The notes beneath the pieces are model-generated. The model had not been told where the DNA came from. It saw nothing but the letters and a program-made list of their open reading frames with translations, and made no database searches. A DNA stretch of 64,000 nt from an uncultured Flavobacteriales bacterium (GTDB lineage: Bacteria > Bacteroidota > Bacteroidia > Palsa-965). Every line of letters begins with the position of its first letter. Positions within the stretch are counted from its first letter, which is position 1. Location of the stretch: positions 36,498 to 100,497 of the forward strand of contig CALJIF010000041.1 in NCBI GenBank assembly GCA_937974275.1. Direction: 5' to 3'. The position numbers were made by a program, and so were the translations under genes. Shown here piece after piece: positions 2,229 through 45,107 of this stretch.

Positions 2229-2348
2229 CTATCGTCTTAAGTGAACATCCTCTCCGGAGTTGCGTCTGCAACCGTCCGAAACCGCTTAAGAACGTTCAAT
2301 GCTAAATTGCATTTAACGCGGACACACAACAGTTTAAATTATACACAC

Positions 2349-3353: not shown

Positions 3354-6230
3354 ATGAAAAAAGTAGCTGCATTTATTCTTTGTTTTTTATCCGTACAGTT
3401 GTTTGCACAATACACCGTTAGTGGTATTGTTAAGGATGATTCAAACGGCGAAGTATTGATTGGTGCTGTTGTAGTGGCAGATGGCGGAAAGGCTTTCGCT
3501 ACCACAGATGTTGATGGCTCCTATAAATTGCAATTGGCAGACGGTGATCACATCCTGACGATTCAATACTCAGGTTATGCAGCTAGTCCCGTTAAAATTA
3601 AGGTTGCGGGTAAAGCACTTACCGTTGACATTCCTGCGAAAAGCAATACGTTGAAAGAAGTTGAAATTGTTGCGGATGTAGCAATTGAACGTAAAACTCC
3701 GGTTGCCTTTTCGAACATCGGTGATGCTAAAATTCGCGAAGAAGGCGGGACACGTGATATTACCATGATGCTGAATTCAACGCCCGGAGCTTACGCAACG
3801 GAGCAAGGCGGCGGTGCCGGTGATTCACGCGTAAACATTCGCGGAATTGACCAGCGCAACGTTGCTGTTATGGTTGATGGTGTTCCCGTTAATGATATGG
3901 AAAACGGCCAGGTGTACTGGAGTAACTGGGACGGACTAGCGGATGTCACACGTACTATGCAAGTACAACGCGGTCTTGGAGCTTCTCGTTTGGCGATCCC
4001 GTCGGTAGGTGGAACAATCAACGTATTAACGAGAGGAATTGATCAGAAGCAAGCGTTTTCGTTACGTTCCGAATTTGGAAACAATAACGGACAGAAATAT
4101 TCATTCGGTTTTAACTCCGGAGAATTTGGGAAAGGATGGGGCGTTACATTAGCCGGAAGCCGCAGAACGGGCGATGGTTGGGCAGATCAAACATGGACTG
4201 ATTCGTGGTCGTATTTTATAAAAGTTCAAAAACGCTTTGGTGATCGTCACCTGGTGTCCATTGGGGCGAACGGAGCTCCACAATCTCACGGTCAACGTTC
4301 CGAACGATTACCGATTAGTGTTTACGATCGTGCTTATGCCGAAAAATTGGGAATCAACATAGATTCTTCTTATCAAAACAATGCTTACACCACGCCTTTT
4401 CAGGGCGAACGCGGTTTACGATTCAATTCACGCTGGGGTTATTTAAATTATCCCGATGGTCAGCAAGGTCGTTTCAATGAACGTATCAACTTCTACCATA
4501 AGCCGCAAATTACAGCACAACATTATTGGACAATTACAGAACGTTTGTCGTTATCTACAATCGTGTATTTGTCACTGGGAAATGGCGGAGGAACTTCGTT
4601 TAATTCCATTCCAAACAGAGATACCTTGACAGGCCTTCTGAATATCACAGCGCCTTACTTATCGAATTCCAGCAACATTGATGCACTATACAGCACAACA
4701 GAAACGAAATCGACACGCATTCTTCAAGCATCAATGAACAACCATTTTTGGTACGGTGGATTAAGTACGTTAACCTACAAAGCCAACGAGAAATTCTCTG
4801 CTATGTTAGGTATTGATGGACGCTCATACACCGGTTATCATTACCGCAAAGTGTATGATCTCGTTGGAGGAGATTACTTCGTTGATTTTTCGAATCGCAA
4901 TCAACCGAACGGAGTTGGCAATTTGCAATACGCCATGAAAGGATTGAACGATACGATTGGTTATTACAATGTTGGCTTGGTTAATTGGGGCGGTGTATTT
5001 GCTCAGGCCGAATATGTTTCCGGAAAATGGAGTACGTTCGTTACAGTAACAGGCTCTATGACTTCGTACCAGCGTGTAGATTACTTCCGCAAGAAAGATA
5101 TTGTCATGGATGACGGAACCGTAGTGGAACAGATTGTCGGATATAACGAAGTGTTGTATACGAATGGACAACAACAAGGCGTTGCAGCCAACGGAGCAGT
5201 AGTAACTGTTTCCGGTGATACGACGTTCATTAATAATCCCAGCGGTGCAGATTATGCAATTACGAATGCACAGTCGTATGCATGGGCATCTGACAAAGCT
5301 CGATTTGCGCAAACCGAACGTAAGTTATTCCCGGGTTTCACGGTTAAGAGCGGCGCAAACTACAACATCAACGATCATTACCGCGTATTCTTAAATGCAG
5401 GATACATGAACATGGCTCCGCGTTTCAATACCGTTTTTGATAACGCCAACCGCGAATATCCCGGTGTGAAGAATCAAAAAATATATGCAGTTGAAGTTGG
5501 CTCCGGTGCACGATTCAAAGGGTTTGCTGCAAACCTGAACTTATACTACACCTACTGGGAAAATAAGCCTCCTACATTCTCGCCTACCATTAACATTGCG
5601 GGTGATGTTTTCACATACGACCTGATTGGATTAACAACAATTCATAAAGGAGTTGAAGTTGATGCGAATTGGCAAGTCTGGAGAAATGTTCAGGCGGAGT
5701 TCTTGATGTCTATTGGAGATTGGGTAAACAATTCAGCAGGCATTGTGTACCTGTACGATCAAAACCTTATCCTGGAAGACACCATCGAATACAGCGGACG
5801 AGGTGTGCATGTTGGCGATGCGGCTCAAACACAAATCGGCGGATCGCTGCGCTGGGAACCTATTAAAGGAGCATACATTAAGGCTCGATTCACATACTTC
5901 GCGCGTAATTATGCCAATTTTGATCCGATTGCGTTAACTCCGGTTTATAACACGCAAGGTGATATTATTAGAGACAATCGCGATCGCGAATCCTGGGTGG
6001 CTCCAAGTTATGGGTTGCTGGATATTTTCGGTGGATTTGAAATACGCGACATCGTTCCGAAAGATGAGAAACGATTTAGTCGTGTTGGCTTTACATTTAC
6101 CATATTTAATGTTCTCAATACTAAATACATTACCGACGCACAAAATGGAGTTAACTTTGATGCTTCTACAGCATTGGTGTACATGGGTCAAGGACGACGT
6201 TGGAATGCCGGGATGCGTTTTAGTTTTTAA
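3354..6230 (+). CDS. TonB-dependent outer-membrane receptor (CarbopepD_reg-like N-domain + plug + barrel), not SusC/SusD-paired
   Basis: 958 aa. Signal peptide. N-terminal YTVSGIVKDDSNGEVLIGAVV (carboxypeptidase-regulatory-like domain), then plug region ...DITMMLNSTPGAYAT...VNIRGIDQRN...VDGVPVND. The C-terminal residue is F (…GMRFSF). Confidence 0.85.
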   Translation: MKKVAAFILCFLSVQLFAQYTVSGIVKDDSNGEVLIGAVVVADGGKAFATTDVDGSYKLQLADGDHILTIQYSGYAASPVKIKVAGKALTVDIPAKSNTLKEVEIVADVAIERKTPVAFSNIGDAKIREEGGTRDITMMLNSTPGAYATEQGGGAGDSRVNIRGIDQRNVAVMVDGVPVNDMENGQVYWSNWDGLADVTRTMQVQRGLGASRLAIPSVGGTINVLTRGIDQKQAFSLRSEFGNNNGQKYSFGFNSGEFGKGWGVTLAGSRRTGDGWADQTWTDSWSYFIKVQKRFGDRHLVSIGANGAPQSHGQRSERLPISVYDRAYAEKLGINIDSSYQNNAYTTPFQGERGLRFNSRWGYLNYPDGQQGRFNERINFYHKPQITAQHYWTITERLSLSTIVYLSLGNGGGTSFNSIPNRDTLTGLLNITAPYLSNSSNIDALYSTTETKSTRILQASMNNHFWYGGLSTLTYKANEKFSAMLGIDGRSYTGYHYRKVYDLVGGDYFVDFSNRNQPNGVGNLQYAMKGLNDTIGYYNVGLVNWGGVFAQAEYVSGKWSTFVTVTGSMTSYQRVDYFRKKDIVMDDGTVVEQIVGYNEVLYTNGQQQGVAANGAVVTVSGDTTFINNPSGADYAITNAQSYAWASDKARFAQTERKLFPGFTVKSGANYNINDHYRVFLNAGYMNMAPRFNTVFDNANREYPGVKNQKIYAVEVGSGARFKGFAANLNLYYTYWENKPPTFSPTINIAGDVFTYDLIGLTTIHKGVEVDANWQVWRNVQAEFLMSIGDWVNNSAGIVYLYDQNLILEDTIEYSGRGVHVGDAAQTQIGGSLRWEPIKGAYIKARFTYFARNYANFDPIALTPVYNTQGDIIRDNRDRESWVAPSYGLLDIFGGFEIRDIVPKDEKRFSRVGFTFTIFNVLNTKYITDAQNGVNFDASTALVYMGQGRRWNAGMRFSF

Positions 6231-6262
6231 TAATCATTGATACGTCAATTAATTACACACAC

Positions 6263-8452
6263 ATGAATAAACTATTTACCTCATTACTCGTTCTGGTAAC
6301 GGGTATTTTATTTGGTCAGGCCACGTTGCCCTCAACATGGAGCTTTACCACAACGTCATTCCCTGCAGGCTGGACAGCAACGGGAACAGGATTTTATACC
6401 GGCTCTGGAAATACGCCTCCGGCCTTGCGTTTGGATAACACCGGCGATAACCTTGTGATTTGGTATGCAGGATCTGCAGGCCCACTTACTTACTACATTT
6501 CGGGTAATAGTTTTTCAGGCGGCACTTTTGAAGTTCAGGAATCTGTAAATGGCAACACTTGGACAACATTACGTACGTTCACGACGAACATGCCAACCAA
6601 TTACACCATGTTTACGGATCAACCTGCTGCGGCAAGTCGTTATGTTCGGTTTAACTATACTCAAAAAAACAGTGGCAACGTAGGACTGGATGACGTAAGT
6701 ATTGCAGCACCTGCAGCGGGGCCTCAACAAGAAATCAATGTTTTGTATAGCGCACAAACTGTGCTATCCGGTGGTTCTATCTGGACGTCATCAGCTGTTA
6801 GTTCAACGACTTCATTAACGTTAACCGTTGAAAATTTAGGAACTCAGAATGCGTTAAACATTGCGTCCGCAGTTATCAGCGGAACTAATGCTTCCGAGTT
6901 TGTAATTCAATCTGCACCAAGTGTTGTTAATGCATTAAGCACAGGAAATATCGTAATTGACTTCACACCAACTGCAGCAGGAACACGCGTCGCTACATTA
7001 ACAATCACTAACGATGACAGCGATGAGGGTTCGTACGTAATTAACTTATTTGGAGCGGGTGGCGGATTGGCATCAGAACCAAACGCACCTACGAATTTAA
7101 ATTTCACGAACGTAAAGTCGTATCGTTTCCAAACCAACTGGACGGCTTCATCTCCCGCTGCTGATGGCTACATCGTATTGCGTAAAAATGGAAGTGCAGT
7201 AACTGATGTTCCTGTCGATGGTGCGTCATATACCGTTGGGGATTATATCGGAACAAGTCAGGTTGCATATGTTGGAACATCTACTACCACTTGGATCAAT
7301 TACGTTGGAGCATCTTCACAATATGGAATTGCCGTGTTCGCGTATAACGGTCCCGGAGCATTTCGCAACTACACCGATGGAAGTCCATTAGCAAATGTAG
7401 TATCCTCTTCCGGTTCCATGCAGCCGGCAAATTATTATAGCGGGATCAATACCTCTTCATCAACTTTTGTTAATGACCTTACCTTGCTGACCAATCCACA
7501 TACCGACCGCTTCTACAGCAATTACGGACCGTACATGGTTACGAAGTTCTGGGCACGTGACACCACCAACGGTCAGCGGGTTGTTACCTGTGTTTATTCC
7601 GGAGAGAACTTGGTTTATACAGAACCATTCGCATGGGTAACGTTCAGTCGTGAACATACGTATTCGTTCAGCTGGATGCCTTCTAATCCAAATACGAACA
7701 CACCTGAATACAGTGATTACTTCAATCTATATCCGGTTAATCAGGATGATGCCAACGCTGTTCGCAGCAATTATCCTTTGGGAGAAGTTGTTAACGTAAC
7801 CAACACCTATTTAGGAGCGAAATATGGACAAGACGCCAACGGACGCACGGTTTACGAACCACGAGATGATCAGAAAGGCGATGCGGCACGTTCAATGTTC
7901 TATATGGCAACCTGCTACAATAGCACAGTTGCAGACTGGAGTTTCCCGAATCCGATCAGCACTTCCATCATGTATGGTCAGGACCAGAATTTGTTAAAGG
8001 CATGGCATTATCAGGATTTACCGGATGCACGTGAAATCGCCAAGAATGATTACATCGACTCATTGCAGGGTAATCGTAATCCGTTTATCGATAGCGTAAA
8101 CTATGCTTGTTACATTGACTTCTACACGATGAACAAAATCAATGGCCCTACTTTACCATGCTCGAATTCTACGATCGGAATCAGTGAAGTAAATCAACAA
8201 CCTATTGTGCTTAATACCATGCCTAATCCTGCCGGAGACAATTTCATGTTGTACGTATCCGCATTGGAAAATAAAACCGGGGTATTACAGGTTGTTGATG
8301 TTCAGGGCAAAGTAATCGATGAACAGACCGTTGTCTTAAATTCAGGTACTTCTGCATTCAGTTTTGATTGCAAAAATTGGAATTCAGGCATGTACACGAT
8401 CCGTATTCAGACCGAAAATCAGGTATTTTTGACCAGAATGATCAAGAATTAA
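6263..8452 (+). CDS. Secreted Endonuclease I-family (EndA/Vvn-like) nuclease with a long Ser/Thr-rich N-terminal region and a T9SS C-terminal domain
   Basis: The C-terminal half aligns by eye with E. coli EndA motifs: REHTYSFSWMP ~ VEWEHVVPAW, LGEVVNVTN ~ VGEVNGDRGN, GDAARSMFYMATCY ~ GAIARTYFYMRDQY, QGNRNPFIDSVNYAC ~ QGNHNPYVQRAC. The last ~90 aa are T9SS-C-terminal-domain-like (VLNTMPNPAGDNFMLYV...GMYTIRIQTENQVF). Confidence 0.7.
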   Translation: MNKLFTSLLVLVTGILFGQATLPSTWSFTTTSFPAGWTATGTGFYTGSGNTPPALRLDNTGDNLVIWYAGSAGPLTYYISGNSFSGGTFEVQESVNGNTWTTLRTFTTNMPTNYTMFTDQPAAASRYVRFNYTQKNSGNVGLDDVSIAAPAAGPQQEINVLYSAQTVLSGGSIWTSSAVSSTTSLTLTVENLGTQNALNIASAVISGTNASEFVIQSAPSVVNALSTGNIVIDFTPTAAGTRVATLTITNDDSDEGSYVINLFGAGGGLASEPNAPTNLNFTNVKSYRFQTNWTASSPAADGYIVLRKNGSAVTDVPVDGASYTVGDYIGTSQVAYVGTSTTTWINYVGASSQYGIAVFAYNGPGAFRNYTDGSPLANVVSSSGSMQPANYYSGINTSSSTFVNDLTLLTNPHTDRFYSNYGPYMVTKFWARDTTNGQRVVTCVYSGENLVYTEPFAWVTFSREHTYSFSWMPSNPNTNTPEYSDYFNLYPVNQDDANAVRSNYPLGEVVNVTNTYLGAKYGQDANGRTVYEPRDDQKGDAARSMFYMATCYNSTVADWSFPNPISTSIMYGQDQNLLKAWHYQDLPDAREIAKNDYIDSLQGNRNPFIDSVNYACYIDFYTMNKINGPTLPCSNSTIGISEVNQQPIVLNTMPNPAGDNFMLYVSALENKTGVLQVVDVQGKVIDEQTVVLNSGTSAFSFDCKNWNSGMYTIRIQTENQVFLTRMIKN

Positions 8453-28346: not shown

Positions 28347-31300
28347 CTACATATTTCTTCTATACTGTCCACCAACCTCAAACAACGCCTCCGTTATCTG
28401 ACCTAACGAACAAACCTTCACGGCCTCCATCAATTCAGTAAACACATTACCATTACGAATTGCGGTATCTTGCAGTCTCGACAATGCAACTTTAGAGTGC
28501 TCTTCTCTAGACGCATGTAGATTCTTCAGCATACTTATTTGGTACTCCTTCTCTTCAGTTGTAGCCCTGATAACTTCGGCAGGCACAATTGTCGGTGAAC
28601 CTTTTGATGACAAAAATGTATTTACTCCAATAATTGGATATTCACCGGTATGTTTCAGTGTTTCATAATACAGCGACTCCTCCTGAATCTTCCCGCGTTG
28701 ATACATGGTCTCCATTGCACCTAACACACCTCCGCGCTCGCTTATTTTATCAAATTCTCCAAGCACAGCTTCCTCAACCAACTCGGTTAACTCCTCAATA
28801 ACAAACGAACCTTGAAGAGGATTCTCATTCTTCGCTAATCCCAACTCACGATTGATAATAAGCTGAATAGCCATTGCACGACGAACACTTTCTTCAGTAG
28901 GTGTTGTAATTGCCTCATCATATGCATTAGTGTGAAGTGAATTACAGTTATCGTATAACGCGTACAACGCTTGCAATGTAGTTCTGATATCGTTAAAGTC
29001 AATTTCTTGGGCATGCAAGGAACGCCCGGATGTTTGAATATGATATTTCAACATCTGAGAACGTTCGTTCCCCCCGTATTTCAGCTTCATTGCCTTTGCC
29101 CAAATTCTGCGTGCAACACGACCCAATACAGAATATTCCGGATCCATGCCGTTACTAAAGAAAAACGATAAGTTCGGCGCAAAATCATCAATGTGCATAC
29201 CGCGTGACAGGTAATACTCAACGAATGTAAAACCGTTCGAAAGTGTTAGTGCAAGCTGTGTTATAGGATTAGCACCCGCTTCTGCAATGTGATAACCTGA
29301 AATCGAAACAGAATAAAAATTGCGAACCTTGTTGTCAATAAAATATTGCTGCACATCACCCATCAATCGCAACGAAAATTCAGTCGAGAAAATACAGGTA
29401 TTCTGAGCCTGATCTTCCTTCAGAATATCTGCCTGAACCGTACCTCGAACCTGTGATAATGTTTCCGCTTTAATCTTTTGATAAACATCCGCCGGCAATA
29501 CTTGATCCCCGGTAACACCAAGCAACATTAAACCCAAACCGTCGTTTCCTTCAGGAAGCTGTGCTGCATTATACTTCGGCCGTTGTACTCCTTTTGCGTC
29601 CCACAACGCCTGAATTTTTTTCTCAACTTCAGCCTCTAAACCATTGGCTTTAATGTACAACTCGCACTGCTGATCAATCGCTGCATTCATAAAAAAGGCT
29701 GCGATGGTAGGAGCCGGCCCGTTAATCGTCATGGATACAGATGTCTTCGGACTTGCCAGATTGAAACCGCTATACAATTTTTTAGCATCGTCCAAACAAC
29801 AAATGGAAACACCTGAATTTCCAATTTTACCGTAAATATCGGGGCGGTGATCAGGATCACGGCCATATAGTGTTACGGAATCAAATGCTGTAGAAAGACG
29901 ATGTGCAGGCATACCAAGTGACACGTAATGGAAACGCTTGTTGGTTCGTTCCGGTCCTCCTTCACCTGCAAACATTCGCGTCGGATCTTCTCCTTCACGC
30001 TTGAATGGATAAATTCCTGAAGTGTATGGAAATTCTCCAGGAAAGTTTTCTTGACCCATCCAGGTAAGCAAATCGCCCCATGCTTGATAACGAGGTGAAG
30101 ACACTTTCGGAACCATCGTGTGTGATAATGATTCGTAGTGCGTTTTTATTTTCACCTCTTTATCTCGAACCTTAAAGATGTAATACTCATCCTTATACTG
30201 CTGCGCTTTCGCACTAAATGACTCGATCATCTTCATGTTCTTCGGATCGAGCTCGAGTAACAATTGATCGTATTGATTTTGTAACAACTTCAACAATTCA
30301 CTATTGAGATCCTTTTGCTCTGAACGTAATGTTGAAATTGTCGTGTGTATTGCATATAACTTTTGCGCTATTGCCGACTGATCCTGCAAACGACGATCGT
30401 AAGCGCGGTTATTTTCTGAAATTTCCGACAAATAGCGTGTTCGTGCAGGAGGGATGATGTAAACCTTTTCAGACATCTCTTTAGAAATCTGAAATGTCGA
30501 TTCCAAATTAGCCCCTGTTCGCTCAACAACTTTATCAATCACTGCACGGTACAAACGATTCATTCCGGGATCGTTGAACTGGGAAGCAATAGTGCCGTAT
30601 ACCGGCAACTGCTCGTCGTCTGTTTCCCAAAGTTGATGATTGCGCTTAAACTGCTTCTTCACATCACGCAACGCATCCAAAGCACCGCGTTTATCAAACT
30701 TGTTTAGTGCAATGATATCCGCGAAATCGAGCATGTCTATCTTCTCCAACTGAGTTGCGGCGCCGTATTCAGGAGTCATTACATATAAACTGACGTTGCT
30801 GTGTTCAATAATCTCAGTATCACTCTGACCAATGCCGGATGTTTCCAAAATAATTAAATCGAACTGCGCCGCCTTCAACACATCAACCGCTTCCTGCACG
30901 TGTTTCGATAATGCAAGATTACTCTGTCTGGTTGCCAGTGAACGCATATAAACACGCGAGTTGCTAATCGCATTCATCCGAATTCGATCTCCCAATAATG
31001 CTCCACCTGTTTTGCGTTTCGATGGATCTACTGAGATAATGCCGATGTTTTTGTCTTTGAAGTCTACAAGAAATCTTCTAACCAATTCATCAACCAACGA
31101 CGACTTTCCCGCTCCGCCTGTACCTGTAATTCCAAGCACAGGAGTTTTGCTTTTTTGCGCTAACGCTTTGATCTCTGCTGCAGCACCACCATGTTGCTCA
31201 GAAAAATTTTCGAAAGCAGAAATAAGTCTTCCTAATTCTTTATGATTCTTCGGATCAAGATGTTTGACTTCTCCATTCAAATGAACGCCGGTAGCAAAAT

Positions 31301-31730
31301 CACACTTCTCCAGCAAATCATTAATCATTCCCTGCAAACCCATAGCACGCCCGTCATCAGGATGATAGATGCGCGTAATACCATAATCGTGCAACTCCTT
31401 AATCTCCTCGGGAAGAATTGTTCCGCCTCCGCCACCAAATATTTTGATCTGCTCGCAACCTCTTTCTTTCAATAGATCATACATGTATTTAAAAAACTCC
31501 ATGTGACCACCCTGATACGATGTGATAGCGATTGCATTCGCATCTTCCTGTATGGCACAATTCACAATTTCTGCAACACTTCGGTCGTGACCCAAATGAA
31601 TTACCTCAGCACCACTCGACTGAATAATTCTGCGCATAATATTTATTGCTGCATCATGACCGTCAAATAATGAAGCGGCTGTTACAATTCGAACTTTATT
31701 CTTCAGTTGATAAGGCTTTACCTCTTGCAT
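28347..31730 (-). CDS. icmF: Fused isobutyryl-CoA mutase (IcmF-type: N-terminal B12-binding domain + MeaB-like GTPase + acyl-CoA mutase catalytic domain)
   Basis: 1127 aa. N-terminal B12 domain with DxHxxG (FDGHDAAIN). P-loop [12 protein letters not shown] with MeaB-like switch regions. The C-terminal ~600 aa is a methylmalonyl-CoA-mutase-like TIM-barrel substrate domain. Confidence 0.85.
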
Positions 31731-33816: not shown

Positions 33817-36468
33817 TTACAAATTGGCCAGCTGATCCTGCAGCGCTTTAATCTTAGCTTCAGCATCTGCTTGCTTTCTGCGCTCAACGTCTATCACTTC
33901 AGGCTTCGCATTCTGAACAAAACGCTCATTCGCTAATTTTTTCTGAACAGCATTCAAGAACCCGATATTATATTCAATCTCCTTCTGAAGTTTTGCGCGC
34001 TCTTCGTCCACATTGATATTTCCGGCAATAGGAACAAAGTACTCCACTCCTTTCACAACAAAACCTAATGCACCCTGCGGCTTGTCGGCTACAAACTGAA
34101 TGGAGTCGACAGGTGCTAATTTGACAATAATACCATCAAAAGCACTCTGCGCATCCGCAGACTTTACAAACAAATCAAGCGGTTGCTTTGCGGGAATATT
34201 CTTTTGTTTACGAATCGTTCTTATCTCGGCGATGATTTGTTGTGCAATTGCAAACTGATCCAAAACCTTTTGATCGTATGGTAATACAGTTGGCCATGAT
34301 GCAACAATAATTCCGTCATTAGCACCACGCTCTTCCAAATGGTGATAAAGTTCTTCCGTAATAAACGGCATAAATGGATGTAGCAATTTCAGAACATCTT
34401 CGAAGAATGCAACGGTGGAATTATAGGTCAATGCGTCAACCGGCTTTGCTTGTCCATCAACAAACTCGGGCTTGATCATCTCTAAATACCAGGCGCAAAA
34501 ATCATCCCACACTAACTTGTACGTTGCCATCAAAGCATCCGACAAACGAAACTTAGCATAGTGATCATTAATTTCTCCTAACTGCTGATGGAATCGATTT
34601 TGAAACCACGTAATTCCTGCAGCACAAGATGCAGGTTGCTCCAAATTCGGATCAACTTGCCAGCCACTTACTAAGCGAAATGCATTCCAGATTTTGTTAG
34701 AAAAATTGCGCCCCTGCTCACACAACGATTCGTCAAACGGCAAATCGTTTCCTGCAGGAGAACACAATAACATGCCTACACGTACACCATCCGCACCGTA
34801 CTTTTCAATTAAATCCAATGGATCCGGTGAGTTGCCCAACGACTTCGACATTTTACGACCTTGCTTGTCGCGAACGATACCCGTCAAATAAACATTCTGA
34901 AAAGGTTTTTTTCCGGTGTATTCGTATCCTGCAATAATCATACGAGCTACCCAGAAGAACAAAATTTCAGGCGCTGTTACCAGATCATTGGTTGGATAGT
35001 AATATGCCAAATCTTCATTCCACTTCGCTCCTTTTTCCTTCCCGAAAATTGTAGGATCAAAAACCGAAATAGGCCATAACCACGACGAAAACCATGTATC
35101 CACAACATCTTCATCCTGCGATAAAGTATCCGGTTTACCTGCGGGATATAATTTCAAATATTGCTCAACAGCTTCATCTTTAGTTTTTGCTACTACAAAA
35201 TTCCCGTCCGCGTCATACCATGCAGGAATGCGCTGTCCCCACCACAACTGACGTGAAATGCACCAATCCTGCACATTCTCCATCCAGTAACGATAAGTGT
35301 TAATGAACTTATCAGGAATCAAATTCACATCTCCATTAACTACAGCAGCTAATGCCGGCTCTGAAATTTTCTTCATAGCCACAAACCACTGCGGTGACAA
35401 ACGCGGTTCAATTACTGCGTTCGTACGTTCAGAATAACCCACATTATTCTTGATATCATCCACCTTCACCAAATGCCCCTTCTCTTCCAAATCACGAACG
35501 ATCTGCTTCCGCACTGCAAAACGATCCATCCCAACGTATAACTGCGCGGCAGCATTCAACTTACCATCAGGTGTTAAAATATCAATTGACTCCAGATTGT
35601 GCTTCTTACCTAACTCGTAGTCATTCTTGTCGTGAGCAGGCGTTACTTTTAGTGCTCCGGTACCGAATTCTTTGTCCACGTATTCATCGGCAATAATTGG
35701 AACTGCACGATTGATCAATGGAACCAAAGCACGCTTACCAACCAAATCAGCGTAACGTTCATCTTCAGGATGTACGCAAATTGCAGTATCACCTAAAATT
35801 GTTTCGGGACGCGTCGTTGCAATCGTAATATAACGATCAACCGTTCCTTCAATTTTGTATTGCAGATAATACAATTTCGAAGTCGCTTCCTTCATATTTA
35901 CTTCTTCATCGGATACCGCTGTTAATGCCACCGGATCCCAATTCACCATTCGTGTTCCACGATAGATGTATCCTTTCTTATACAAATCAATGAACACATC
36001 TACCACGGCCTTAGACATATCTTCATCCATGGTAAATCGCGTTCTGTTCCAATCTACCGAAGCGCCCAGCTTTTTCAATTGTTCCAGAATTATCCCTCCA
36101 TACTTCTCTTTCCAGTCCCACGCATGCTTTAAAAAATCTTCGCGGGATAAATCGCCTTTTTTAATTCCTTGATCCGCTAAAAGCTTCACCACCTTCGCCT
36201 CCGTCGCAATAGATGCGTGATCCGTCCCGGGAACCCAACATGCATTTTTACCCTGCATACGTGCGCGGCGTATCAACACATCCTGAATGGTATTATTCAG
36301 CATATGCCCCATGTGTAATACACCTGTTACGTTTGGCGGCGGGATAACTACGGTATAAGGTTCGCGCTCATCGGGAGTAGAGTTAAAGAATCCTTTTTCT
36401 AACCACCATGCGTACCACTTATCTTCCGTAGACTGGGGACTGTATGTTTTGGGTAATTCCATTGCCAT
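33817..36468 (-). CDS. valS: Valine--tRNA ligase
   Basis: HIGH-class motif [21 protein letters not shown] ([10 protein letters not shown]), ValRS editing and anticodon-binding segments, C-terminal coiled coil. Start set at [11 protein letters not shown] (ATG 36468, or 36462); the track ORF extends further upstream. Confidence 0.9.
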
Positions 36469-36635
36469 AAATGAATGTCTGATTATTAAACCGATGATGC
36501 AGACAATGCAGAAAAAATATAACTTTACAATGCCGTGCAAAAAAGCGTCTGCAAAGCTAAAAAAAAATGAAGCGTGCAGCGGAAGTGGCACGATTTTGGA
36601 TACTCATAAAAAGAACTTAAACACAATAACACATC

Positions 36636-37235
36636 ATGAAAAAGCTACTTATTCTTCCATTTTTGTTTATCGCGGCGGTAACCGTAAAGGCTCAAGGTCC
36701 TGTAACATCGGCACCAATTGACAATCCAACTGCGCCTAACATGTCATTTGATCAAAAAGAACACAAGTTTGGCACGATCAAGCAAGGCGAATCCGTTACT
36801 TATGAATTCAAATTCACCAATACAGGCAAAGAACCGTTGATCATTACAAATGCACAGGGATCTTGCGGATGCACAGTTCCTGAATACCCGAAAGAACCAA
36901 TTAAGCCAAACGGTAACGGCACAGTTAAAGTTACTTTTAACTCCACCGGCAAAATGGGCCCACAGGACAAGACGGTAACATTAACTTACGACAACGGTCG
37001 CACAGAAACATTGCACATGATCGGAACGGTTGAGGCTGCAAACACCCAGGCTCCTGCTGCTGCTCAGCCTGCTGCTGCTCCTGCCGGAAAAACAACTGCT
37101 CCTGCCGGAAAAACAACTGCTCCTGCTAACAATAGCAAGGCTACTCCGGCTCCTTCCTCAAAAACAACTGCTCCGGCTGCTAAGCCTGCGACTCCGGCCG
37201 CTAAGCCTGCACCTGCATCTAAACCAAAAAACTAA
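36636..37235 (+). CDS. DUF1573 domain secreted protein (paralogue 1 of 4) with Ala/Pro/Thr/Lys-rich C-terminal tail
   Basis: Signal peptide. Core KFGTIKQGESVTYEFKFTNTGKEPLIITNAQGSCGCTVPEYPKEPIKPNG. The tail carries a perfect 21-nt tandem repeat (APAGKTT x2). Confidence 0.7.
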   Translation: MKKLLILPFLFIAAVTVKAQGPVTSAPIDNPTAPNMSFDQKEHKFGTIKQGESVTYEFKFTNTGKEPLIITNAQGSCGCTVPEYPKEPIKPNGNGTVKVTFNSTGKMGPQDKTVTLTYDNGRTETLHMIGTVEAANTQAPAAAQPAAAPAGKTTAPAGKTTAPANNSKATPAPSSKTTAPAAKPATPAAKPAPASKPKN

Positions 37236-37259
37236 TTTAAAATTCATTTTATTTCAGTC

Positions 37260-37787
37260 ATGAAATCATTAGTTACTTCAATTGCAATCTTCGGATTGGC
37301 GGTATCGGTTGCTGCGCAAGCTCCGGCAAAGCCGACTCCTACAGCTAAACCTGCTCCTGCTGCGAAACCCGCTCCTGCTGCAAAGCCAACTGCGGGCGAA
37401 CAAAAAGGTGATAATGGTTATAAATTCGATAAAACGGTTCACGACTACGGTACAATTAAAAAAGGTGCGGATGGAACTTGCGAATTTAAAATCACCAACA
37501 CCAGCAAAGAGCCTTTAGTGATACAGTCGGCTGTAGGAAGCTGCGGTTGCACTGTTCCTAAATATGATAAAGAGCCAATTATGCCCGGTAAAAGCACAGT
37601 AATCACTGTAAAGTACGACACTAACCGTGTAGGACCTTTCACTAAAGAAGTTACTGTAATGTTCGAAGGCAAGCCTGAACCGGCTAAAGTTCAAATTAAA
37701 GGTAACGTTGAAGCTCCTCCTGCAGACACCCCGTTCCCGGCTCCGGGTTCAGGTGCTCCGGGTTCAGGCGCTCCGGTAAATAACTAA
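37260..37787 (+). CDS. DUF1573 domain secreted protein (paralogue 2) with N- and C-terminal low-complexity Ala/Pro/Lys linkers
   Basis: DYGTIKKGADGTCEFKITNTSKEPLVIQSAVGSCGCTVPKYDKEPIMPGK. KPAPAA and PGSGA tandem microrepeats. Confidence 0.7.
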   Translation: MKSLVTSIAIFGLAVSVAAQAPAKPTPTAKPAPAAKPAPAAKPTAGEQKGDNGYKFDKTVHDYGTIKKGADGTCEFKITNTSKEPLVIQSAVGSCGCTVPKYDKEPIMPGKSTVITVKYDTNRVGPFTKEVTVMFEGKPEPAKVQIKGNVEAPPADTPFPAPGSGAPGSGAPVNN

Positions 37788-37791
37788 CAAA

Positions 37792-38223
37792 TTGAAATAC
37801 ATTTTCAATATAGCATTCCTACTAGTTGCGGGCTTGTCTGTGCTTCACGGACAAGCCCCTTCTGCAACTGTGAGTGGCCCGGTGATCACATTCCAAGAGG
37901 TTGTGGTAGATTACGGCACTATCTCCCAAGGTAGTGAAGCGGTTCGCGTATTTACATTTACAAATACCGGCAACGAACCATTGGTCATTTCTTCAATCAA
38001 AGGTCAGTGCGGATGCACCAGTATCGGTGACAGTTGGAACAAACAACCTATTCCTCCGGGAGGAACCGGAACATTTTCTGTTAAATACGATACTTCCATC
38101 CGGGTTGGACAATTCGAAAAAAAAATCATGGTGTATTCCAATGCAACCAATGGAACGGGAGGAATTGTAGAAGTACGCGTTAAGGGTAATGTACTACCGG
38201 CCGGAGTTCCAATACCGAAATAA
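37792..38223 (+). CDS. DUF1573 domain secreted protein (paralogue 3)
   Basis: DYGTISQGSEAVRVFTFTNTGNEPLVISSIKGQCGCTSIGDSWNKQPIPPGG. Starts 4 nt after paralogue 2. Confidence 0.7.
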   Translation: MKYIFNIAFLLVAGLSVLHGQAPSATVSGPVITFQEVVVDYGTISQGSEAVRVFTFTNTGNEPLVISSIKGQCGCTSIGDSWNKQPIPPGGTGTFSVKYDTSIRVGQFEKKIMVYSNATNGTGGIVEVRVKGNVLPAGVPIPK

Positions 38224-38231
38224 TTTTTCAA

Positions 38232-38633
38232 ATGGCACAGAAAATAAAAGCATATGGTGGTTTAATCGCAGTTATGTGCATTGTGATCTTGAGTACTGCC
38301 ATGATTGCCGGTGCTGCACTAACATTTGAAGAAACCAAACACAATTTCGGGATGATTCGTCAGGGCGAAGTTGTCTCGCATGATTTTAAATTTACGAATA
38401 CCGGCGATGCACCTTTGATTATCAGTGACGCTGTTGTTACCTGCACCTGTACAAAAGTTGATTTCCCCAAACAGCCTATAGCCAAAGGAGAATCAGGCGT
38501 TGTAAAAGTTACTTTTGAATCGAAAAGTGCTATTGACCGCCAAGAAAGAGCTGTGGTTATAAAATCCAACGCTATTAAGCCTGAAACTACACTTACGATC
38601 AAATGTGTAGTGCTTAAACCAAAAGGCGAATAA
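38232..38633 (+). CDS. DUF1573 domain protein (paralogue 4; N-terminal TM anchor, CGC replaced by CTC)
   Basis: NFGMIRQGEVVSHDFKFTNTGDAPLIISDAVVTCTCTKVDFPKQPIAKGE. Confidence 0.65.
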   Translation: MAQKIKAYGGLIAVMCIVILSTAMIAGAALTFEETKHNFGMIRQGEVVSHDFKFTNTGDAPLIISDAVVTCTCTKVDFPKQPIAKGESGVVKVTFESKSAIDRQERAVVIKSNAIKPETTLTIKCVVLKPKGE

Positions 38634-38687
38634 ATCTGCTTCTTTTTCATTGTAATTACGATCTTTGGCGCTACTAAAAATTGCGTT

Positions 38688-39887
38688 ATGCCGAAGATTT
38701 CCTCAAAAGCAGGTAACATGCCTGCCTCTCCAATCCGTAAACTCGTTCCATTCGCGGAAAAAGCGAAAAAAGAAGGCAAAAAAATCTATCACCTGAATAT
38801 TGGGCAACCGGACATCGAAACTCCGGAAGTGATGTTAAATGCAATTAAGAACTCACCTGTTCGTGTGATCGAATATTCACATTCGGCAGGAAACGAAAGC
38901 TATCGCATAAAACTGGCGGAGTATTACCGTAAATTCAAAATGCCGGTTAATACAGAAGACATCATTATAACCACAGGTGGTTCTGAAGCGATTGAAATTG
39001 CAATGATGACATGCTTCAATCCCGGTGATGAAATTATTATCCCGGAACCATTTTACGCCAATTACAATGGATTTTCTTGTGCGGCAGATCTTGTTATTAA
39101 GCCTGTTCGATCCTACATCGAAAGCGGATTTGCTTTGCCTCCGATAGCAGAATTTGAAAAATTAATCACGTCAAAAACACGTGGTATCATGATCTGTAAT
39201 CCCGGCAATCCGACAGGTTACCTTTACAGCAAGGAAGAGTTGGAACAGCTGAAAACATTAGTTCAGAAATACGATCTTTTTTTGTTGTCCGACGAAGTGT
39301 ATCGTGAGTTTTGTTATGATGGGAAACAATATACTTCGGTGCTTCACCTGGAAGGAATTGAGAACAATACGATTCTCCTCGATTCTATTTCTAAACGCTA
39401 TAGCGCCTGTGGAGCCCGAATTGGCGCCATGATTTCAAAGAACAAAGAAGTGATGGCAGCTGCCATGAAATTCGCGCAAGCTCGATTATCTCCTCCAACT
39501 TTTGGCCAAATCGGTGCAGAAGCTGCATTAAACACACCGGACTCGTATTTCACGGAAGTAATCAACGAATACACCGCACGTCGTGATTATTTGATTGATG
39601 CACTCAATGCTATGCCGGGCGTTTTTTGCCCTAAACCTAGCGGCGCATTTTATTGCATAGCTCGCCTACCTATCGACAACGCAGATAAATTCTGCCAATG
39701 GATGTTGGAATCGTTCAGCCATAACAATGGCACAGTGATGATGGCTCCCGCAACCGGATTCTATTCTACACCGGGAGCAGGTCACAACGAAGTTCGCCTG
39801 GCATACGTACTTAAGAAAAGTGACCTCGAAGCAGCAATATCTTGTTTGGCGGAAGGATTAAAGCAATACCCCGGCAAGACGAACTAG
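38688..39887 (+). CDS. Pyridoxal-phosphate-dependent aminotransferase, class I (aspartate/aromatic aminotransferase-like)
   Basis: 399 aa. SISKRYSACGARIGAM is the PLP-Lys region, and the fold-type I layout fits. Confidence 0.85.
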   Translation: MPKISSKAGNMPASPIRKLVPFAEKAKKEGKKIYHLNIGQPDIETPEVMLNAIKNSPVRVIEYSHSAGNESYRIKLAEYYRKFKMPVNTEDIIITTGGSEAIEIAMMTCFNPGDEIIIPEPFYANYNGFSCAADLVIKPVRSYIESGFALPPIAEFEKLITSKTRGIMICNPGNPTGYLYSKEELEQLKTLVQKYDLFLLSDEVYREFCYDGKQYTSVLHLEGIENNTILLDSISKRYSACGARIGAMISKNKEVMAAAMKFAQARLSPPTFGQIGAEAALNTPDSYFTEVINEYTARRDYLIDALNAMPGVFCPKPSGAFYCIARLPIDNADKFCQWMLESFSHNNGTVMMAPATGFYSTPGAGHNEVRLAYVLKKSDLEAAISCLAEGLKQYPGKTN

Positions 39888-39911
39888 GATGCTCATTCGC
39901 TCAAAGTTGTA

Positions 39912-39942
39912 ACGCGACCATATCGATGGTCGCGTTTTTTTT
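39912..39942 (+). terminator. Rho-independent terminator after the aminotransferase gene
   Basis: acgcgaccat-atcg-atggtcgcgt followed by TTTTTTTT. Confidence 0.75.
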
Positions 39943-40013: not shown

Positions 40014-40514
40014 ATGTACAAAAAAAACCTCTCAGCAGCGGCTTTGGCGTTGTGCATTACTGCGTTTTCGCAGGCACAATCAATTGCCCCAAGCGTCATT
40101 TCGAGTGGTGGTGAATTCTTTTCGAATTCTTCCGGTATGATAGAATGGACCGTTGGTGAACCGATGATTGAAACGTACTCTGCGAGTGGTTTCTTTATCA
40201 CTCAAGGTTTTCATCAGCCCGAGGATGTTAACTCTTCAATTGGAGAGACCGGCATTCCCGTAAACGCGTCCGTTTATCCTAACCCCACCACTGACTTTGT
40301 CAACATTCAATTTGGAGAAGACGTATCCGGTCTTTTCGTAATTGATGTTTACAATGCTCTCGGTCAGCGTATGCAGACCGAACAATTTTCGGCTTCTTCA
40401 TCAGGCAGAACTCAAATTAACCTAAGCGGTTACGCTACCGGAGTGTATTTCATTCAGGTACGTGCTGTAAATGGTAAGGCAAACACCACATTCAAAATCA
40501 CTAAAAATTCTTAA
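40014..40514 (+). CDS. Small secreted protein consisting of a short N-terminal module plus a T9SS C-terminal sorting domain
   Basis: Signal peptide. The C-terminal ~85 aa are T9SS-C-terminal-domain-like (VYPNPTTDFVNIQF...GVYFIQVRAVNGKANTTFKITK). Confidence 0.6.
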   Translation: MYKKNLSAAALALCITAFSQAQSIAPSVISSGGEFFSNSSGMIEWTVGEPMIETYSASGFFITQGFHQPEDVNSSIGETGIPVNASVYPNPTTDFVNIQFGEDVSGLFVIDVYNALGQRMQTEQFSASSSGRTQINLSGYATGVYFIQVRAVNGKANTTFKITKNS

Positions 40515-42621: not shown

Positions 42622-43542
42622 ATGAAGCAACTTATTCTTTTTATTTCTGCTTGCATTGCTCAAATCTGCACAGGTCAATCTGTTGCACCAACCGTTAGCA
42701 CCTCATACTTCCAATATGTCGTACAAACTCTTGCGCATGATTCAATGCAAGGTCGCTTACCGGGAACACATGAGGAAAAAGTTGCAGCGAATTTCATCGC
42801 ACAAGAATTTCAAAAGGCCGGTTGCGCTCCTGTAAAAGAGAATCAATGGCTATTCCCCTTCACCTATGTAAACCCGGACACCGCTCTCGTTCAATCAGCA
42901 GGAAATGTAATTGGTAAAATAGAAACCAAACATAAAAAGTGCATCGTTGTATCTGCTCATTATGACCATATCGGTTACGGCAAATTCCACTCCAAGGATC
43001 CGTTCTCCAGAAAAATTCATAACGGAGCAGATGATAATGCCAGCGGTGTTGCCATGATGTTAGGACTCGCGGCTTATTGTAAAACCAAAATCGACCAACT
43101 TCAGTATGACGTCATCTTTGTCGCATTCTCCGGAGAAGAAGATGGTCTTTGGGGTGCACTAGCATTACTACAGCAAAATATCATTGATACGTCAACAATT
43201 GTTGCAAACATTAATTTGGACATGGTAGGTCGCTTAGATATACTAACGCCTATTTTGGAAATTCAAACCAAACACGCAGGTTCCTGTATTTTCCAAGTTG
43301 CACAAACAGTTAAGTCGGATAAATTCAAAACAATTGTTGCGGAAGACAAAGTGCGCTTCGGCTCAGACCATGCTATTTTTAATGAAAACAGGATTCCTGC
43401 GATACTCGTTTCTACCGGACTTGGCAGTCACTACCACCGCCCCAGCGATGATGCCGCGACCATCAACTATAGCGGCATGATGGCTATCGCTGCGGAAATT
43501 CAAAAACTTATTCTAAACGGAGAACTACTCCGTTGTCAGTAA
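42622..43542 (+). CDS. M28 family zinc aminopeptidase (secreted)
   Basis: Signal peptide MKQLILFISACIAQICTG. HYDHIGYG, GADDNASGVAMML, FSGEEDGLWGA are M28 metal-ligand motifs. Confidence 0.75.
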   Translation: MKQLILFISACIAQICTGQSVAPTVSTSYFQYVVQTLAHDSMQGRLPGTHEEKVAANFIAQEFQKAGCAPVKENQWLFPFTYVNPDTALVQSAGNVIGKIETKHKKCIVVSAHYDHIGYGKFHSKDPFSRKIHNGADDNASGVAMMLGLAAYCKTKIDQLQYDVIFVAFSGEEDGLWGALALLQQNIIDTSTIVANINLDMVGRLDILTPILEIQTKHAGSCIFQVAQTVKSDKFKTIVAEDKVRFGSDHAIFNENRIPAILVSTGLGSHYHRPSDDAATINYSGMMAIAAEIQKLILNGELLRCQ

Positions 43543-45107
43543 ACAATAATTTGTTTAGACTTTCGGGAAGTACCTGTATTCAGGCTAATCGTATAGGTGC
43601 CCGCAGGCATATCTGCAGTCGCAATTTCCATACGATACATTCCTGCACCTTGAGCTCCTCTATTCCACTCTTTAACCAAACGCCCATTTTGATCAAACAG
43701 TTGTAATACTACCGAACTATTCTGAGGAATGAAATAACTCACATTAACAGGAGTATTACCCGCTGTCGGAACAGGGTAAGGATCGTATAACTGAGGTGTT
43801 CGAATAATGTTCTGATAGGCGTTTTGTTGAACAGAATTCAATACTACGCTATCAATAATTATATTTTCATCACCTGCCTGATAAGGCAAATACGCGTAAT
43901 AGATCACCATCATTTCATCATCCGTAGCTTCGCCCGCAGTAACCAATTGCGGAGGATTATTCGGATTGTTCGGATTATTCGCAGTGTTGTCGTAATACGC
44001 ACTTGCATAAACCACGCTGTTTCCGGGAATCACGACAGGCTGCCGGTAAGTGTAAAATCCTTGCCAGTGAAAATTCCAATCAGGAATACTGATCAATGGT
44101 ATGGTATCTCCGGATGGATCTACAGCCCATGACCAAATCGACTTACCGATCAAATGCATGTGCGGAGCAACACTTATCAATGTTAAAGGTGAAGAGACAG
44201 CCACCTGCGCGTTAAACGTACGCGTTGTATTCGCAGGAATAACAAGAGGTCCATTGGTTAATGATGTGGTGTGATTGATAGCCGGCGCTAAAGTCACATT
44301 ACGAACTACTCCGCTTGAAAAAGTAAATCGCACATGAGTACTGTCGGTCTGATTAAACGTACCGGACGGATAATGAATTTGCATAATGATGTAACTGTTC
44401 GCTTCCAGTTTGATACCCATATTTGGCGGCAGTTCATAAACACCTTGACCAGGAACCCAACCCGCTATAAGTGTTGCAGTATTTGAACCTACACCACCAA
44501 AACTGGTATACCCCGGCCCCGGATCATTATTATCCAATGTCACGCAAGTATTCTGCACATCCTGATACACGAGCACGTGGTGTACAATCGGTCTGTTTCC
44601 CGGAACAACTTCAACTTTAGTTATGTATTCATCTTGCGTAATACCTGATGGTACAACAAAACAACGGTACAAATCTGTGGCAGTATTCACGGTGTACGTT
44701 TGCATTTGAGCAGACAAATCCGGATTCGTAATAGCTGGTCCTGCTGTATAAGTTGGCGCCGGCGGAGCATTCGCAATGTTTCCCGATGGAAATCCTGCAG
44801 TTACCCAATTATCAATCGTTGTTATTTCCTGCTGTGTTAAAGCTCGTTCATGGGCAAATCTGGTATATGCGGTATCAGGAGGCCATGGCGGCATTCTGCG
44901 CATAGTTACCGCATTCTGAATATTTGGTGCAACATTAGCTGCATCGTTATAGGTAATCAATGAAAATGGTGCAATACCGCCCGGATGGTGACAATTGGTA
45001 CATTTCCCGTAAAGAATATTCGCCACATCATCTGCCCATGTCGGACTCTGAGCATCTACAGTAGAAGCAATAGTTGCAAGAACAGCAACGAGTAAAAACT
45101 TTTTCAT
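43536..45107 (-). CDS. Secreted copper type II ascorbate-dependent monooxygenase-like (PHM/DBH-like) protein with an N-terminal CxxCH motif and a T9SS C-terminal domain
   Basis: CuH-like IVHHVLVY + MQIHYP. CuM-like APHMHLIGKS + EATDDEMMVIYYAY (compare PHM HTHHLGK and TTDEMC). NFHWQGFY is also PHM-like. N-terminal ILYGKCTNCHHPGG. C-terminal T9SS domain (SVVLQLFDQNGRLV...GTYTISLNTGTSRKSKQIIVY). Confidence 0.65.
   Translation of the reverse strand: MKKFLLVAVLATIASTVDAQSPTWADDVANILYGKCTNCHHPGGIAPFSLITYNDAANVAPNIQNAVTMRRMPPWPPDTAYTRFAHERALTQQEITTIDNWVTAGFPSGNIANAPPAPTYTAGPAITNPDLSAQMQTYTVNTATDLYRCFVVPSGITQDEYITKVEVVPGNRPIVHHVLVYQDVQNTCVTLDNNDPGPGYTSFGGVGSNTATLIAGWVPGQGVYELPPNMGIKLEANSYIIMQIHYPSGTFNQTDSTHVRFTFSSGVVRNVTLAPAINHTTSLTNGPLVIPANTTRTFNAQVAVSSPLTLISVAPHMHLIGKSIWSWAVDPSGDTIPLISIPDWNFHWQGFYTYRQPVVIPGNSVVYASAYYDNTANNPNNPNNPPQLVTAGEATDDEMMVIYYAYLPYQAGDENIIIDSVVLNSVQQNAYQNIIRTPQLYDPYPVPTAGNTPVNVSYFIPQNSSVVLQLFDQNGRLVKEWNRGAQGAGMYRMEIATADMPAGTYTISLNTGTSRKSKQIIVY

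Follow-up and report, generated by a model that had tools for sequence, protein, structure and literature searches.

In a 64,000-nt stretch of contig CALJIF010000041.1 (assembly GCA_937974275.1; hereafter the window, numbered from its first nucleotide) from an uncultured Flavobacteriales bacterium, four consecutive open reading frames (ORFs) on the + strand at 36636–38633, here termed g1 to g4, each encode a single exported domain of the family DUF1573 (PF07610) and lie between a divergent valS gene and an aminotransferase gene (Table 1). The four ORFs are separate and spaced by 24, 4 and 8 nt, exactly as a preliminary description of this DNA had placed them. That description had also assigned the proteins to DUF1573, and a Pfam search bears this out: all four match PF07610 over its full length (positions 1–98 or 2–98 of a 98-position model) at 97.3–118.4 bits, against a gathering threshold of 26.1 bits, and all four also pass PF22544 (HYDIN/VesB/CFA65 Ig-like). 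g2–g4 are 35–43% identical to g1, and the residues invariant among the paralogues include G46, I48, G51, F58, T61-N62-T63, P67-L68, I70, C77, C79, T80, K86 and P88-I89. The motif quoted in the preliminary description is correct, with the cysteine pair (CxC), which comes after (F)TNTG...PL, present as CGC in g1–g3 (codons TGC GGN TGC) and as CTC in g4 (TGC ACC TGT).

The genome collection was scanned with g4, which returned 42 loci, and g1 homologues were then followed on long contigs. Among the 42 loci of the g4 scan, only the closest relative (L001, a 'Bacteroidetes bacterium' metagenome-assembled genome; g4 83% identical) carries this set of four genes flanked by valS and the aminotransferase gene. 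The arrangement valS (−), DUF1573 genes (+), aminotransferase (+) is found in nine loci, the window and eight others, from related uncultured Bacteroidia, and the order in all nine is valS, g1-g2-g3, zero to two extra genes, g4, aminotransferase. Arrays of four genes occur in the window, L001, L044 and L045, of five genes in L046, L047 and L048, and of six genes in L043 and L049; the incomplete locus L050 has at least three. Two-gene forms adjoin the same aminotransferase gene in the more distant L051 and L038 (Chitinophagaceae), and in L051 a response-regulator/PglZ (PorX-like) gene lies immediately upstream of the DUF1573 pair (5495–7120).

All-against-all comparison of the domains revealed positional orthology. 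g1 is 72–75% identical to the first gene elsewhere, g2 64–71% to the second, g3 62% to the third and g4 59–71% to the last, the g4 type always being last, and genes inside one array are 30–45% identical to each other. The extra genes between g3 and g4 are g1-like (48–55% identical). Each position also has traits of its own: g1 carries a C-terminal tail and g3 is compact; g2 orthologues keep an N-terminal Pro/Ala/Lys spacer, a third cysteine and the ending PFPGPG...GAPVN(N/Q); and the middle residue of CxC in g4 orthologues is T, E or K. The third cysteine of g2 types lies in strand B ('CEF' motif), a cysteine in 'FKCVVLK' (C125 of g4, 38604–38606) is retained in most g4 types, and g1 and g3 have only the CxC pair. 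The four are thus distinct, non-redundant paralogue types in the fixed order g1-g2-g3-...-g4, and the array is a native, ancient, ordered set of four separately translated single-domain proteins, exported by the general secretory (Sec) pathway, in a clade of uncultured Bacteroidia. We hold this anatomy of the locus with high confidence.

The probability that the array is instead a single multi-domain gene interrupted by frameshifts or in-frame stops is vanishingly small. Fused multi-domain DUF1573 proteins do exist (three domains in L043_g4, seven in P0121), but here every ORF starts with a hydrophobic export signal of its own, the same separate genes recur with similar gaps in every related locus, and the ratios of non-synonymous to synonymous substitution rates (dN/dS) are well below 1, so that we ruled out the split-gene reading. 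The TTG start of g3, 4 nt past the g2 stop, is shared with L001, and other g3 orthologues have ATG and a similar signal peptide. A horizontal island was likewise rejected because the GC content is native (0.44–0.46 in the region versus 0.40–0.46 in the flanks).

The preliminary description had suggested that the array is under diversifying pressure. This suggestion does not hold for the domains. In the Nei–Gojobori comparison of the window with L001, dN/dS was 0.095 for g1, 0.025 for g2, 0.10 for g3 and 0.24 for g4 (that is, about 0.03–0.24), with 0.013 for the aminotransferase gene. Differences in the g1 domain number 18 synonymous and 0 non-synonymous, those in the g2 domain 35 and 0, and positional orthologues remain 59–75% identical in distant arrays. 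The g1 tail evolves faster, although its dN/dS is still about 0.2 (dN 0.105, dS 0.52; dN in the g1 domain is 0). These ratios, together with indels confined to the tails, indicate that the domains are under strong purifying selection and that the tails are relaxed.

The Ala/Pro/Lys-rich segments previously called linkers are indeed of low complexity, but they are terminal (C-terminal in g1, N- and C-terminal in g2) and not inter-domain. Tandem Repeats Finder recovered the in-frame microrepeats where they had been reported, every period being a multiple of 3. Length variation by slippage, also proposed earlier, agrees with repeat-associated tail indels among near-identical g1 relatives: g1 and these relatives are 199, 200, 200, 191 and 183 residues long, with all differences in the tail, and the perfect 21-nt duplication is private to the window, being missing in L001 and P0001–P0003. 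Across g1 orthologues, the tail is 12–95 residues long (median 61) and consists of 28% A, 22% P, 16% T and 9.5% K. The tail ends are conserved, as KPK(N/H) in g1 and GAPVN(N/Q) in g2, and KPK lies within the last five residues in 26 of 52 g1 orthologues. The Ala/Pro/Thr/Lys tails are relaxed, disordered and indel-prone spacers. Their composition resembles that of the Ala/Pro-rich linkers of 2-oxoacid dehydrogenase E2 components, and one g1 homologue (P0036) is mis-named 'E2 component' in its source; however, E2 linkers lie between folded domains, whereas the tails here, predicted to be disordered, are terminal and carry short conserved end motifs.

An AlphaFold2 model of g1, built from a 56-sequence alignment, is an eight-strand sandwich with a predicted local distance difference test (pLDDT) score of 94–98 over residues 33–135 and of 50–68 in the signal peptide and tail. 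In this model, S76-C77-G78-C79 is a four-residue coil that joins strands 70–75 and 80–83. Each domain is an immunoglobulin (Ig)-like beta-sandwich of the ASH/MSP/PapD-like type, in which a tight turn at one end holds CxC. When PDB sequences were searched with a profile, Hydin matched (E = 2.5e-8) and no solved DUF1573 protein was found. The conserved cysteine pair described earlier is present in g1–g4 and in 47 of 47 related domains, drawn from 41 loci across Bacteroidota plus one Phycisphaerales locus (42 CGC, 3 CTC and 2 CSC). Losses of CxC are confined to extra or fused copies that are specific to a lineage, namely L043_g4 domains 1–2, L049_g4, L050_g2 and several repeats of P0121, P0123 and P0125. 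Because the motif is lost in such copies, the fold does not require it; core paralogues nevertheless always keep it, which is the pattern expected of a functional site. Fused g1-like DUF1573 proteins with three to seven repeats were seen at L043 9900–10931 and in P0121, P0123, P0125 and P0133; some of their repeats have CxC and in others it is replaced (SGG, GHG and others), degenerate repeats standing beside intact ones.

The same motif links the array to selenoproteins. pfam07610/OS_HP2 is listed as a selenoprotein family with the motif UxC/UGC (PMC2398784, PMC9312934, PMC13188914), and the ocean survey counted 2 selenocysteine-containing OS_HP2 sequences and 354 cysteine homologues. The domain of the OS_HP2 selenoproteins (NF041425; Zhang & Gladyshev 2008, PMC2398784) is homologous to that of g1–g4, and its UxC/UGC corresponds to CGC here. 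Whereas OS_HP2 has selenocysteine, g1–g4 have TGC or TGT codons and no in-frame UGA, and are therefore cysteine homologues and not selenoproteins; they score 49.7–60.4 bits against the NCBIfam model OS_HP2_seleno (NF041425), below its cutoff of 100 bits. A scan of viral contigs for selenocysteine forms of the homologues gave only chance hits in non-coding frames.

Among the uncharacterised domains that Bacteroidota and Planctomycetota export, DUF1573 is one of the larger. In a library of 1.84 billion proteins clustered at 50% identity, we counted 42,420 cluster representatives at E ≤ 1e-3 and 18,194 at E ≤ 1e-10, with up to 23 repeats in single proteins. Given this size (about 42,000 clusters), g1–g4 are ordinary members of a large known family in a newly described conserved arrangement, and at the level of single proteins, with CxC and an N-terminal export signal, nothing sets them apart from PF07610. 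PF07610 is already catalogued in Pfam and has been known as a selenoprotein family since 2008. New relative to the DUF1573 literature that we searched are the ordered array of four to six genes with tails particular to each paralogue, the strong constraint acting on its domains, and, described below, a sigma-54-like element and the recurrent yajC and exbBD-tonB contexts of relatives.

All four proteins have signal-peptide-like N-termini, with an apolar run of 26 residues in g4 versus 9–17 in g1–g3. Type IX secretion system (T9SS) and lipoprotein export are the two established routes to the cell surface in Bacteroidota. Profile searches for the T9SS sorting domain (PF18962/TIGR04183) gave no match in any of g1–g4, and positive controls in the same window (2241–3278, 6263–8452, 40014–40514 and 43536–45107) matched PF18962. 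By inspection, g1–g4 have no lipobox: the signal peptides of g1–g3 contain no cysteine, and C16 of g4 sits in the middle of the apolar run, outside a lipobox context. With neither signal present, the periplasm is a more likely location than the cell surface for the mature proteins, as judged from their sequences. g4 may be held at the inner membrane; however, among its orthologues only that of L001 shares the transmembrane-anchor look, those farther away having short signal peptides of the ordinary kind; anchoring is thus not conserved.

The absence of a T9SS C-terminal domain and of a lipobox in g1–g4 also speaks against the surface-layer or adhesin role put forward in the preliminary description. 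A surface set subject to diversifying selection, its phase or length varying by slippage, is in our view highly improbable. Tail length does differ among close relatives, and a 133-aa DUF1573 protein has been detected in the vesicle proteome of Tannerella forsythia, but the domains are under purifying selection with strict positional orthology and the flanking genes are housekeeping genes. Moreover, the repeats are short and in frame, so they alter the length of the tails but are unable to switch the genes on or off.

The genomic contexts of relatives also bear on the location. In 17 loci (among L003–L033; for example, L004 8837–10750), the order is nusB, a DUF1573 lipoprotein gene (CGC), yajC, ybbR and coaE; the hosts are Sphingobacteriales, Flavobacteriales, Chitinophagales and Saprospiraceae, the gap between the DUF1573 gene and yajC is about 4 nt, and these yajC-linked relatives are single-copy and have lipoboxes. 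In three Rikenellaceae/Alistipes loci (L016 1–1761, L040 8054–10327 and L041 6386–8666), a g4-type gene (CTC or CSC) directly follows exbB (PF01618), exbD (PF02472) and a weak TonB_C-like gene; a TamB-sized ORF (about 1,500 aa) lies upstream of these and an amidohydrolase gene downstream. The yajC and exbBD-tonB neighbours encode inner-membrane machines facing the periplasm.

Between valS and g1 lies a 167-nt spacer. The earlier proposal that the array, being divergent from valS, has its own promoter is supported at the level of a promoter region by this spacer and by a conserved sigma-54-like element within it. The spacer is strongly constrained, being 98.2% identical to that of L001 (165/168), compared with 65–87% at third-codon positions of the flanking genes, and the alignment of seven independent arrays revealed only two conserved blocks. 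One, TAGCTTTG on the − strand, is an exact match to the TAnnTTTG type; it is conserved in six of the seven aligned lineages, its placement suits valS, and it is probably the Bacteroidota sigma-A −7 box of the valS promoter. The other, TGGCACGATTTTGGAT, is the sigma-54-like −24/−12 element, lying 50 nt 5′ of the g1 start codon (ATG). No other block is invariant across the seven aligned arrays, and the −24 half of this element is perfect with respect to the consensus used (TGGCAC-N5-TTGC; GG-N10-GC). The block TGGCACGATTTTGG(C/A) lies 40–68 nt 5′ of the g1 ATG in all nine valS-linked loci, and L043, L044/45, L048, L049 and, more distantly, L051 have GG-N10-GC in full.

The distribution of such sites points the same way. 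In 1.1 Mb searched on both strands, 9 of 14 occurrences of TGGCAYGRTT are at the array promoter position. Sites at a stringent score occur 5′ of the first DUF1573 gene in 7 loci versus 0.76 expected (Poisson P about 1.5e-5, for loci that are not fully independent), and no high-scoring sigma-54-like site other than those of the arrays lies in non-coding DNA shortly before a gene start. A sigma-70 consensus scan found nothing on the + strand upstream of g1, and the valS–g1 intergenic region has no exact TAnnTTTG on its + strand. A structured leader RNA is unsupported, with a fold z-score of −0.22 and no Rfam family across the window. We infer from this conservation that TGGCACGATTTTGGAT is a candidate array promoter of the sigma-54 type. 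A 2025 comparative study found predicted sigma-54 promoters of Bacteroidota and Planctomycetota enriched upstream of GroEL/ES, DnaK/J, GrpE, HSP90 and Clp/Lon (PMC12316311). These are the two phyla in which DUF1573 is common, a suggestive link between sigma-54-controlled proteostasis and DUF1573; the window itself contains no chaperone genes. A canonical sigma-54 site was also seen upstream of an unrelated single DUF1573 gene in L024. In L044/L045, a near-perfect sigma-54 consensus, TGGCACGGTTTCTGCA, lies at 8961 (+) inside the 3′ end of g2, 105 nt before g3; it encodes HGTVSAP and may be a coding coincidence or an internal promoter.

We propose, tentatively and at somewhat less than an even chance, that g1–g4 are periplasmic thiol-redox or folding helpers, by analogy with CsgC or nDsbD. 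The array would be transcribed from its sigma-54-type promoter, a kind typical of chaperone and proteostasis genes in Bacteroidota; the mature proteins would remain in the periplasm, with g4 perhaps held at the inner membrane; and the CxC turn would be the working site, engaging in thiol–disulfide exchange with exported proteins, or among g1–g4 as a relay. The CxC of CsgC, a periplasmic Ig-fold protein related to nDsbD, is invariant and has a redox potential (E0′) of −139 mV, and the CGC tripeptide has one of −167 mV (PMC3173608). CsgC and nDsbD, the two known redox-active Ig folds and the proposed mechanistic analogues, are periplasmic single Ig-like sandwiches with an invariant exposed cysteine pair, as g1–g4 probably are, and in CsgC this pair is also CxC. 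The comparison is one of proposed function; for g1–g4 the model gives the geometry, with CxC in a four-residue turn of g1. By contrast, the thioredoxin-fold oxidoreductases (DsbA/C/G and TlpA) combine a thioredoxin fold with CxxC, and g1–g4, with an Ig-like sandwich and CxC, are not members.

Several observations weigh against a redox or folding role. No specific structural similarity of g1–g4 to CsgC or nDsbD was found, and neither the window nor the related loci link the array to a thioredoxin-fold, DsbB, VKOR or DsbD-like partner. DUF1573 is found, too, as an accessory domain attached to a PL8 lyase or a TPR-OmpA protein and within giant multi-repeat proteins, a distribution that fits a generic binding module. 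Substitution between selenocysteine and cysteine is known in metal-binding selenoproteins too, so selenocysteine cannot separate redox from metal chemistry. As for the promoter, the −12 dinucleotide is GA and not GC in the window (also in L001 and L046/47), and no rpoN or enhancer-binding protein gene was found in the window. Matches to the sigma-54 consensus in the window alone are at the level of chance (94 versus 93.7 expected with up to three mismatches), and the case for the element accordingly draws on its conservation across lineages. Finally, our literature search found no experimental datum for any DUF1573 protein.

A rather unlikely alternative, but one that several features would suit, is a non-catalytic binding or chaperone scaffold, in which the domains would hold or space periplasmic partners and CxC would do no more than staple the domain locally or, as in BslA, provide an oligomerisation disulfide. 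Candidate partners are T9SS cargo, among it the collagen-like protein nearby, or the four proteins might bind one another through the conserved tail ends. The top match, 2qsv, is the modelling template of the collagen-binding PapD-like domain of TMEM131, and genes for a collagen-like protein and T9SS-tailed proteins lie downstream of the array in the window, L046, L047 and L050; this collagen block is, however, absent from L001, L043, L044, L048 and L049. The domain is also fused to unrelated exported enzymes. It is N-terminal to a PL8 polysaccharide lyase in Bacteroidales (L025 and L030–L032, about 770 aa) and stands C-terminally on a TPR...OmpA peptidoglycan-associated protein in Saprospiraceae (L029 5956–8553), with CGC kept in both. 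ASH/MSP/PapD-like Ig domains (HYDIN, CEP192, VAP, pilus chaperones and PDB 2qsv from P. gingivalis) act by protein binding and, unlike g1–g4, lack CxC. PapD chaperones are two-domain proteins encoded beside usher and pilin genes, whereas here there is one domain, no PF00345/PF02753 match in g1–g4 and no usher or pilin gene at any locus. BslA of the B. subtilis biofilm (bioRxiv 10.1101/138099) is a secreted Ig-like protein whose functionally important CxC forms intermolecular disulfides, and some DUF1573 repeats do without CxC; yet the BslA motif is in a flexible C-terminal tail and that of g1–g4 is inside the domain, a likeness without shown homology. Moreover, CxC is invariant in all core paralogues, and selenocysteine substitution would be unexpected for a purely structural cysteine. 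The chaperone role mentioned in the preliminary description is possible.

We consider it improbable that the proteins are periplasmic soft-metal carriers (Cu(I), Zn, or Hg/Cd), with CxC/UxC as a bidentate thiolate ligand for metal delivery to envelope enzymes or for buffering. Many novel selenoproteins of the ocean survey handle metal with U/C motifs (MerP/MerT-like, cation ATPase and YHS-domain proteins), and several periplasmic copper chaperones are beta-sandwiches. Periplasmic Cu(I) sites, however, usually consist of Met or His rather than Cys, no conserved His or Met accompanies CxC, and the array has no linked metal transporter or sensor. A copper type II ascorbate-dependent monooxygenase-like gene (PHM/DBH-like, with a T9SS C-terminal domain; 43536–45107, −) keeps its synteny with the array at every complete related locus, but this synteny reflects the general gene order of the clade, and the gene is on the opposite strand, one to six genes away.

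A broader extension of the redox or folding proposal, which we regard as unlikely, is that DUF1573 is a third and very large class of Ig-fold periplasmic thiol oxidoreductases and that the four paralogues form a sigma-54-controlled envelope folding relay. If this were true, the class would fill part of the gap in the handling of cysteines in exported proteins of Bacteroidota and Planctomycetota. Should the redox or folding reading itself be true, it would provide a function for a large family and a non-thioredoxin player in envelope proteostasis; should it fail, the locus would be four ordinary hypothetical exported proteins. In either case, the locus offers testable features: four non-redundant single-domain paralogues in fixed order, an invariant CxC that is the sole cysteine pair in two of them, published selenocysteine homologues, a conserved sigma-54-like element, and relatives adjoining yajC or exbBD-tonB.

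Table 1. Features of the DUF1573 array and its flanks (window coordinates; residue numbers refer to each protein)
Feature	Position	Strand	Description
valS	33817..36468	-	Valyl-tRNA synthetase; true start 36468 (MAMELPKTY); syntenic in L001, L043–L049
valS–g1 intergenic region	36469..36635		167 nt, divergent
TAGCTTTG	36552..36559	-	TAnnTTTG type; probable −7 box of valS
TGGCACGATTTTGGAT	36586..36601	+	Sigma-54-like −24/−12 element; candidate array promoter
g1	36636..37235	+	199 aa; DUF1573, Pfam 118.4 bits
g1 signal peptide		+	about aa 1–19 (cleavage between VKA and QG, by eye)
g1 domain	36735..37037	+	aa 34–134
g1 CxC codons	36864..36872	+	C77-G78-C79, TGC GGA TGC; sole cysteines of g1
g1 tail		+	aa 135–199; disordered, Ala/Pro/Thr/Lys; C-terminal end KPKN
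g1 tail repeat	37075..37126	+	21-nt tandem repeat x2.5, 100% matches; APAGKTT x2
g1 tail repeat	37171..37210	+	21-nt repeat x1.9; TPAAKPA
g2	37260..37787	+	175 aa; DUF1573, Pfam 114.2 bits
g2 signal peptide		+	about aa 1–19, then Pro/Ala/Lys spacer
g2 spacer repeat	37336..37381	+	18-nt repeat x2.6; AKPAPA units, N-terminal spacer
g2 domain	37413..37715	+	aa 52–152
g2 third cysteine	37479..37481	+	C74, conserved
g2 CGC	37542..37550	+	
g2 C-terminal tail		+	PFPAPGSGAPGSGAPVNN
g2 tail repeat	37740..37776	+	15-nt repeat x2.5; PGSGA units
g3	37792..38223	+	143 aa, TTG start; DUF1573, Pfam 97.3 bits
g3 signal peptide		+	about aa 1–20
g3 domain		+	aa 30–136
g3 CGC	38008..38016	+	sole cysteines of g3
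g4	38232..38633	+	133 aa; DUF1573, Pfam 107.9 bits
g4 N-terminus		+	26-residue apolar run (signal anchor or signal peptide)
g4 domain		+	aa 28–129
g4 CTC	38442..38450	+	
Aminotransferase	38688..39887	+	Class I/II, PF00155; right flank in L001, L043–L051, L038
Terminator-like hairpin	39911..39936	+	Strong, 11-bp stem and T run, 3′ of aminotransferase

On the right flank, the aminotransferase gene is possibly co-transcribed with the array, the two being separated by a 54-nt gap with no terminator between them. A functional tie of the array to the aminotransferase gene or to the copper-monooxygenase-like gene was considered and set aside, as it is inseparable from the general synteny of the clade. 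On the − strand, a 139-aa ORF at 38360–38779 overlies g4 and the gap between g4 and the aminotransferase gene and is also open in L001 (2670–3089, −); the simplest reading is that it mirrors conserved coding sequence on the other strand, and we did not count it as a gene. Upstream of the array, 28347–31730 (−) encodes a 1,127-aa fusion of B12-binding, MeaB GTPase and methylmalonyl-CoA-mutase domains (IcmF-like), which is also found upstream in L043–L046.

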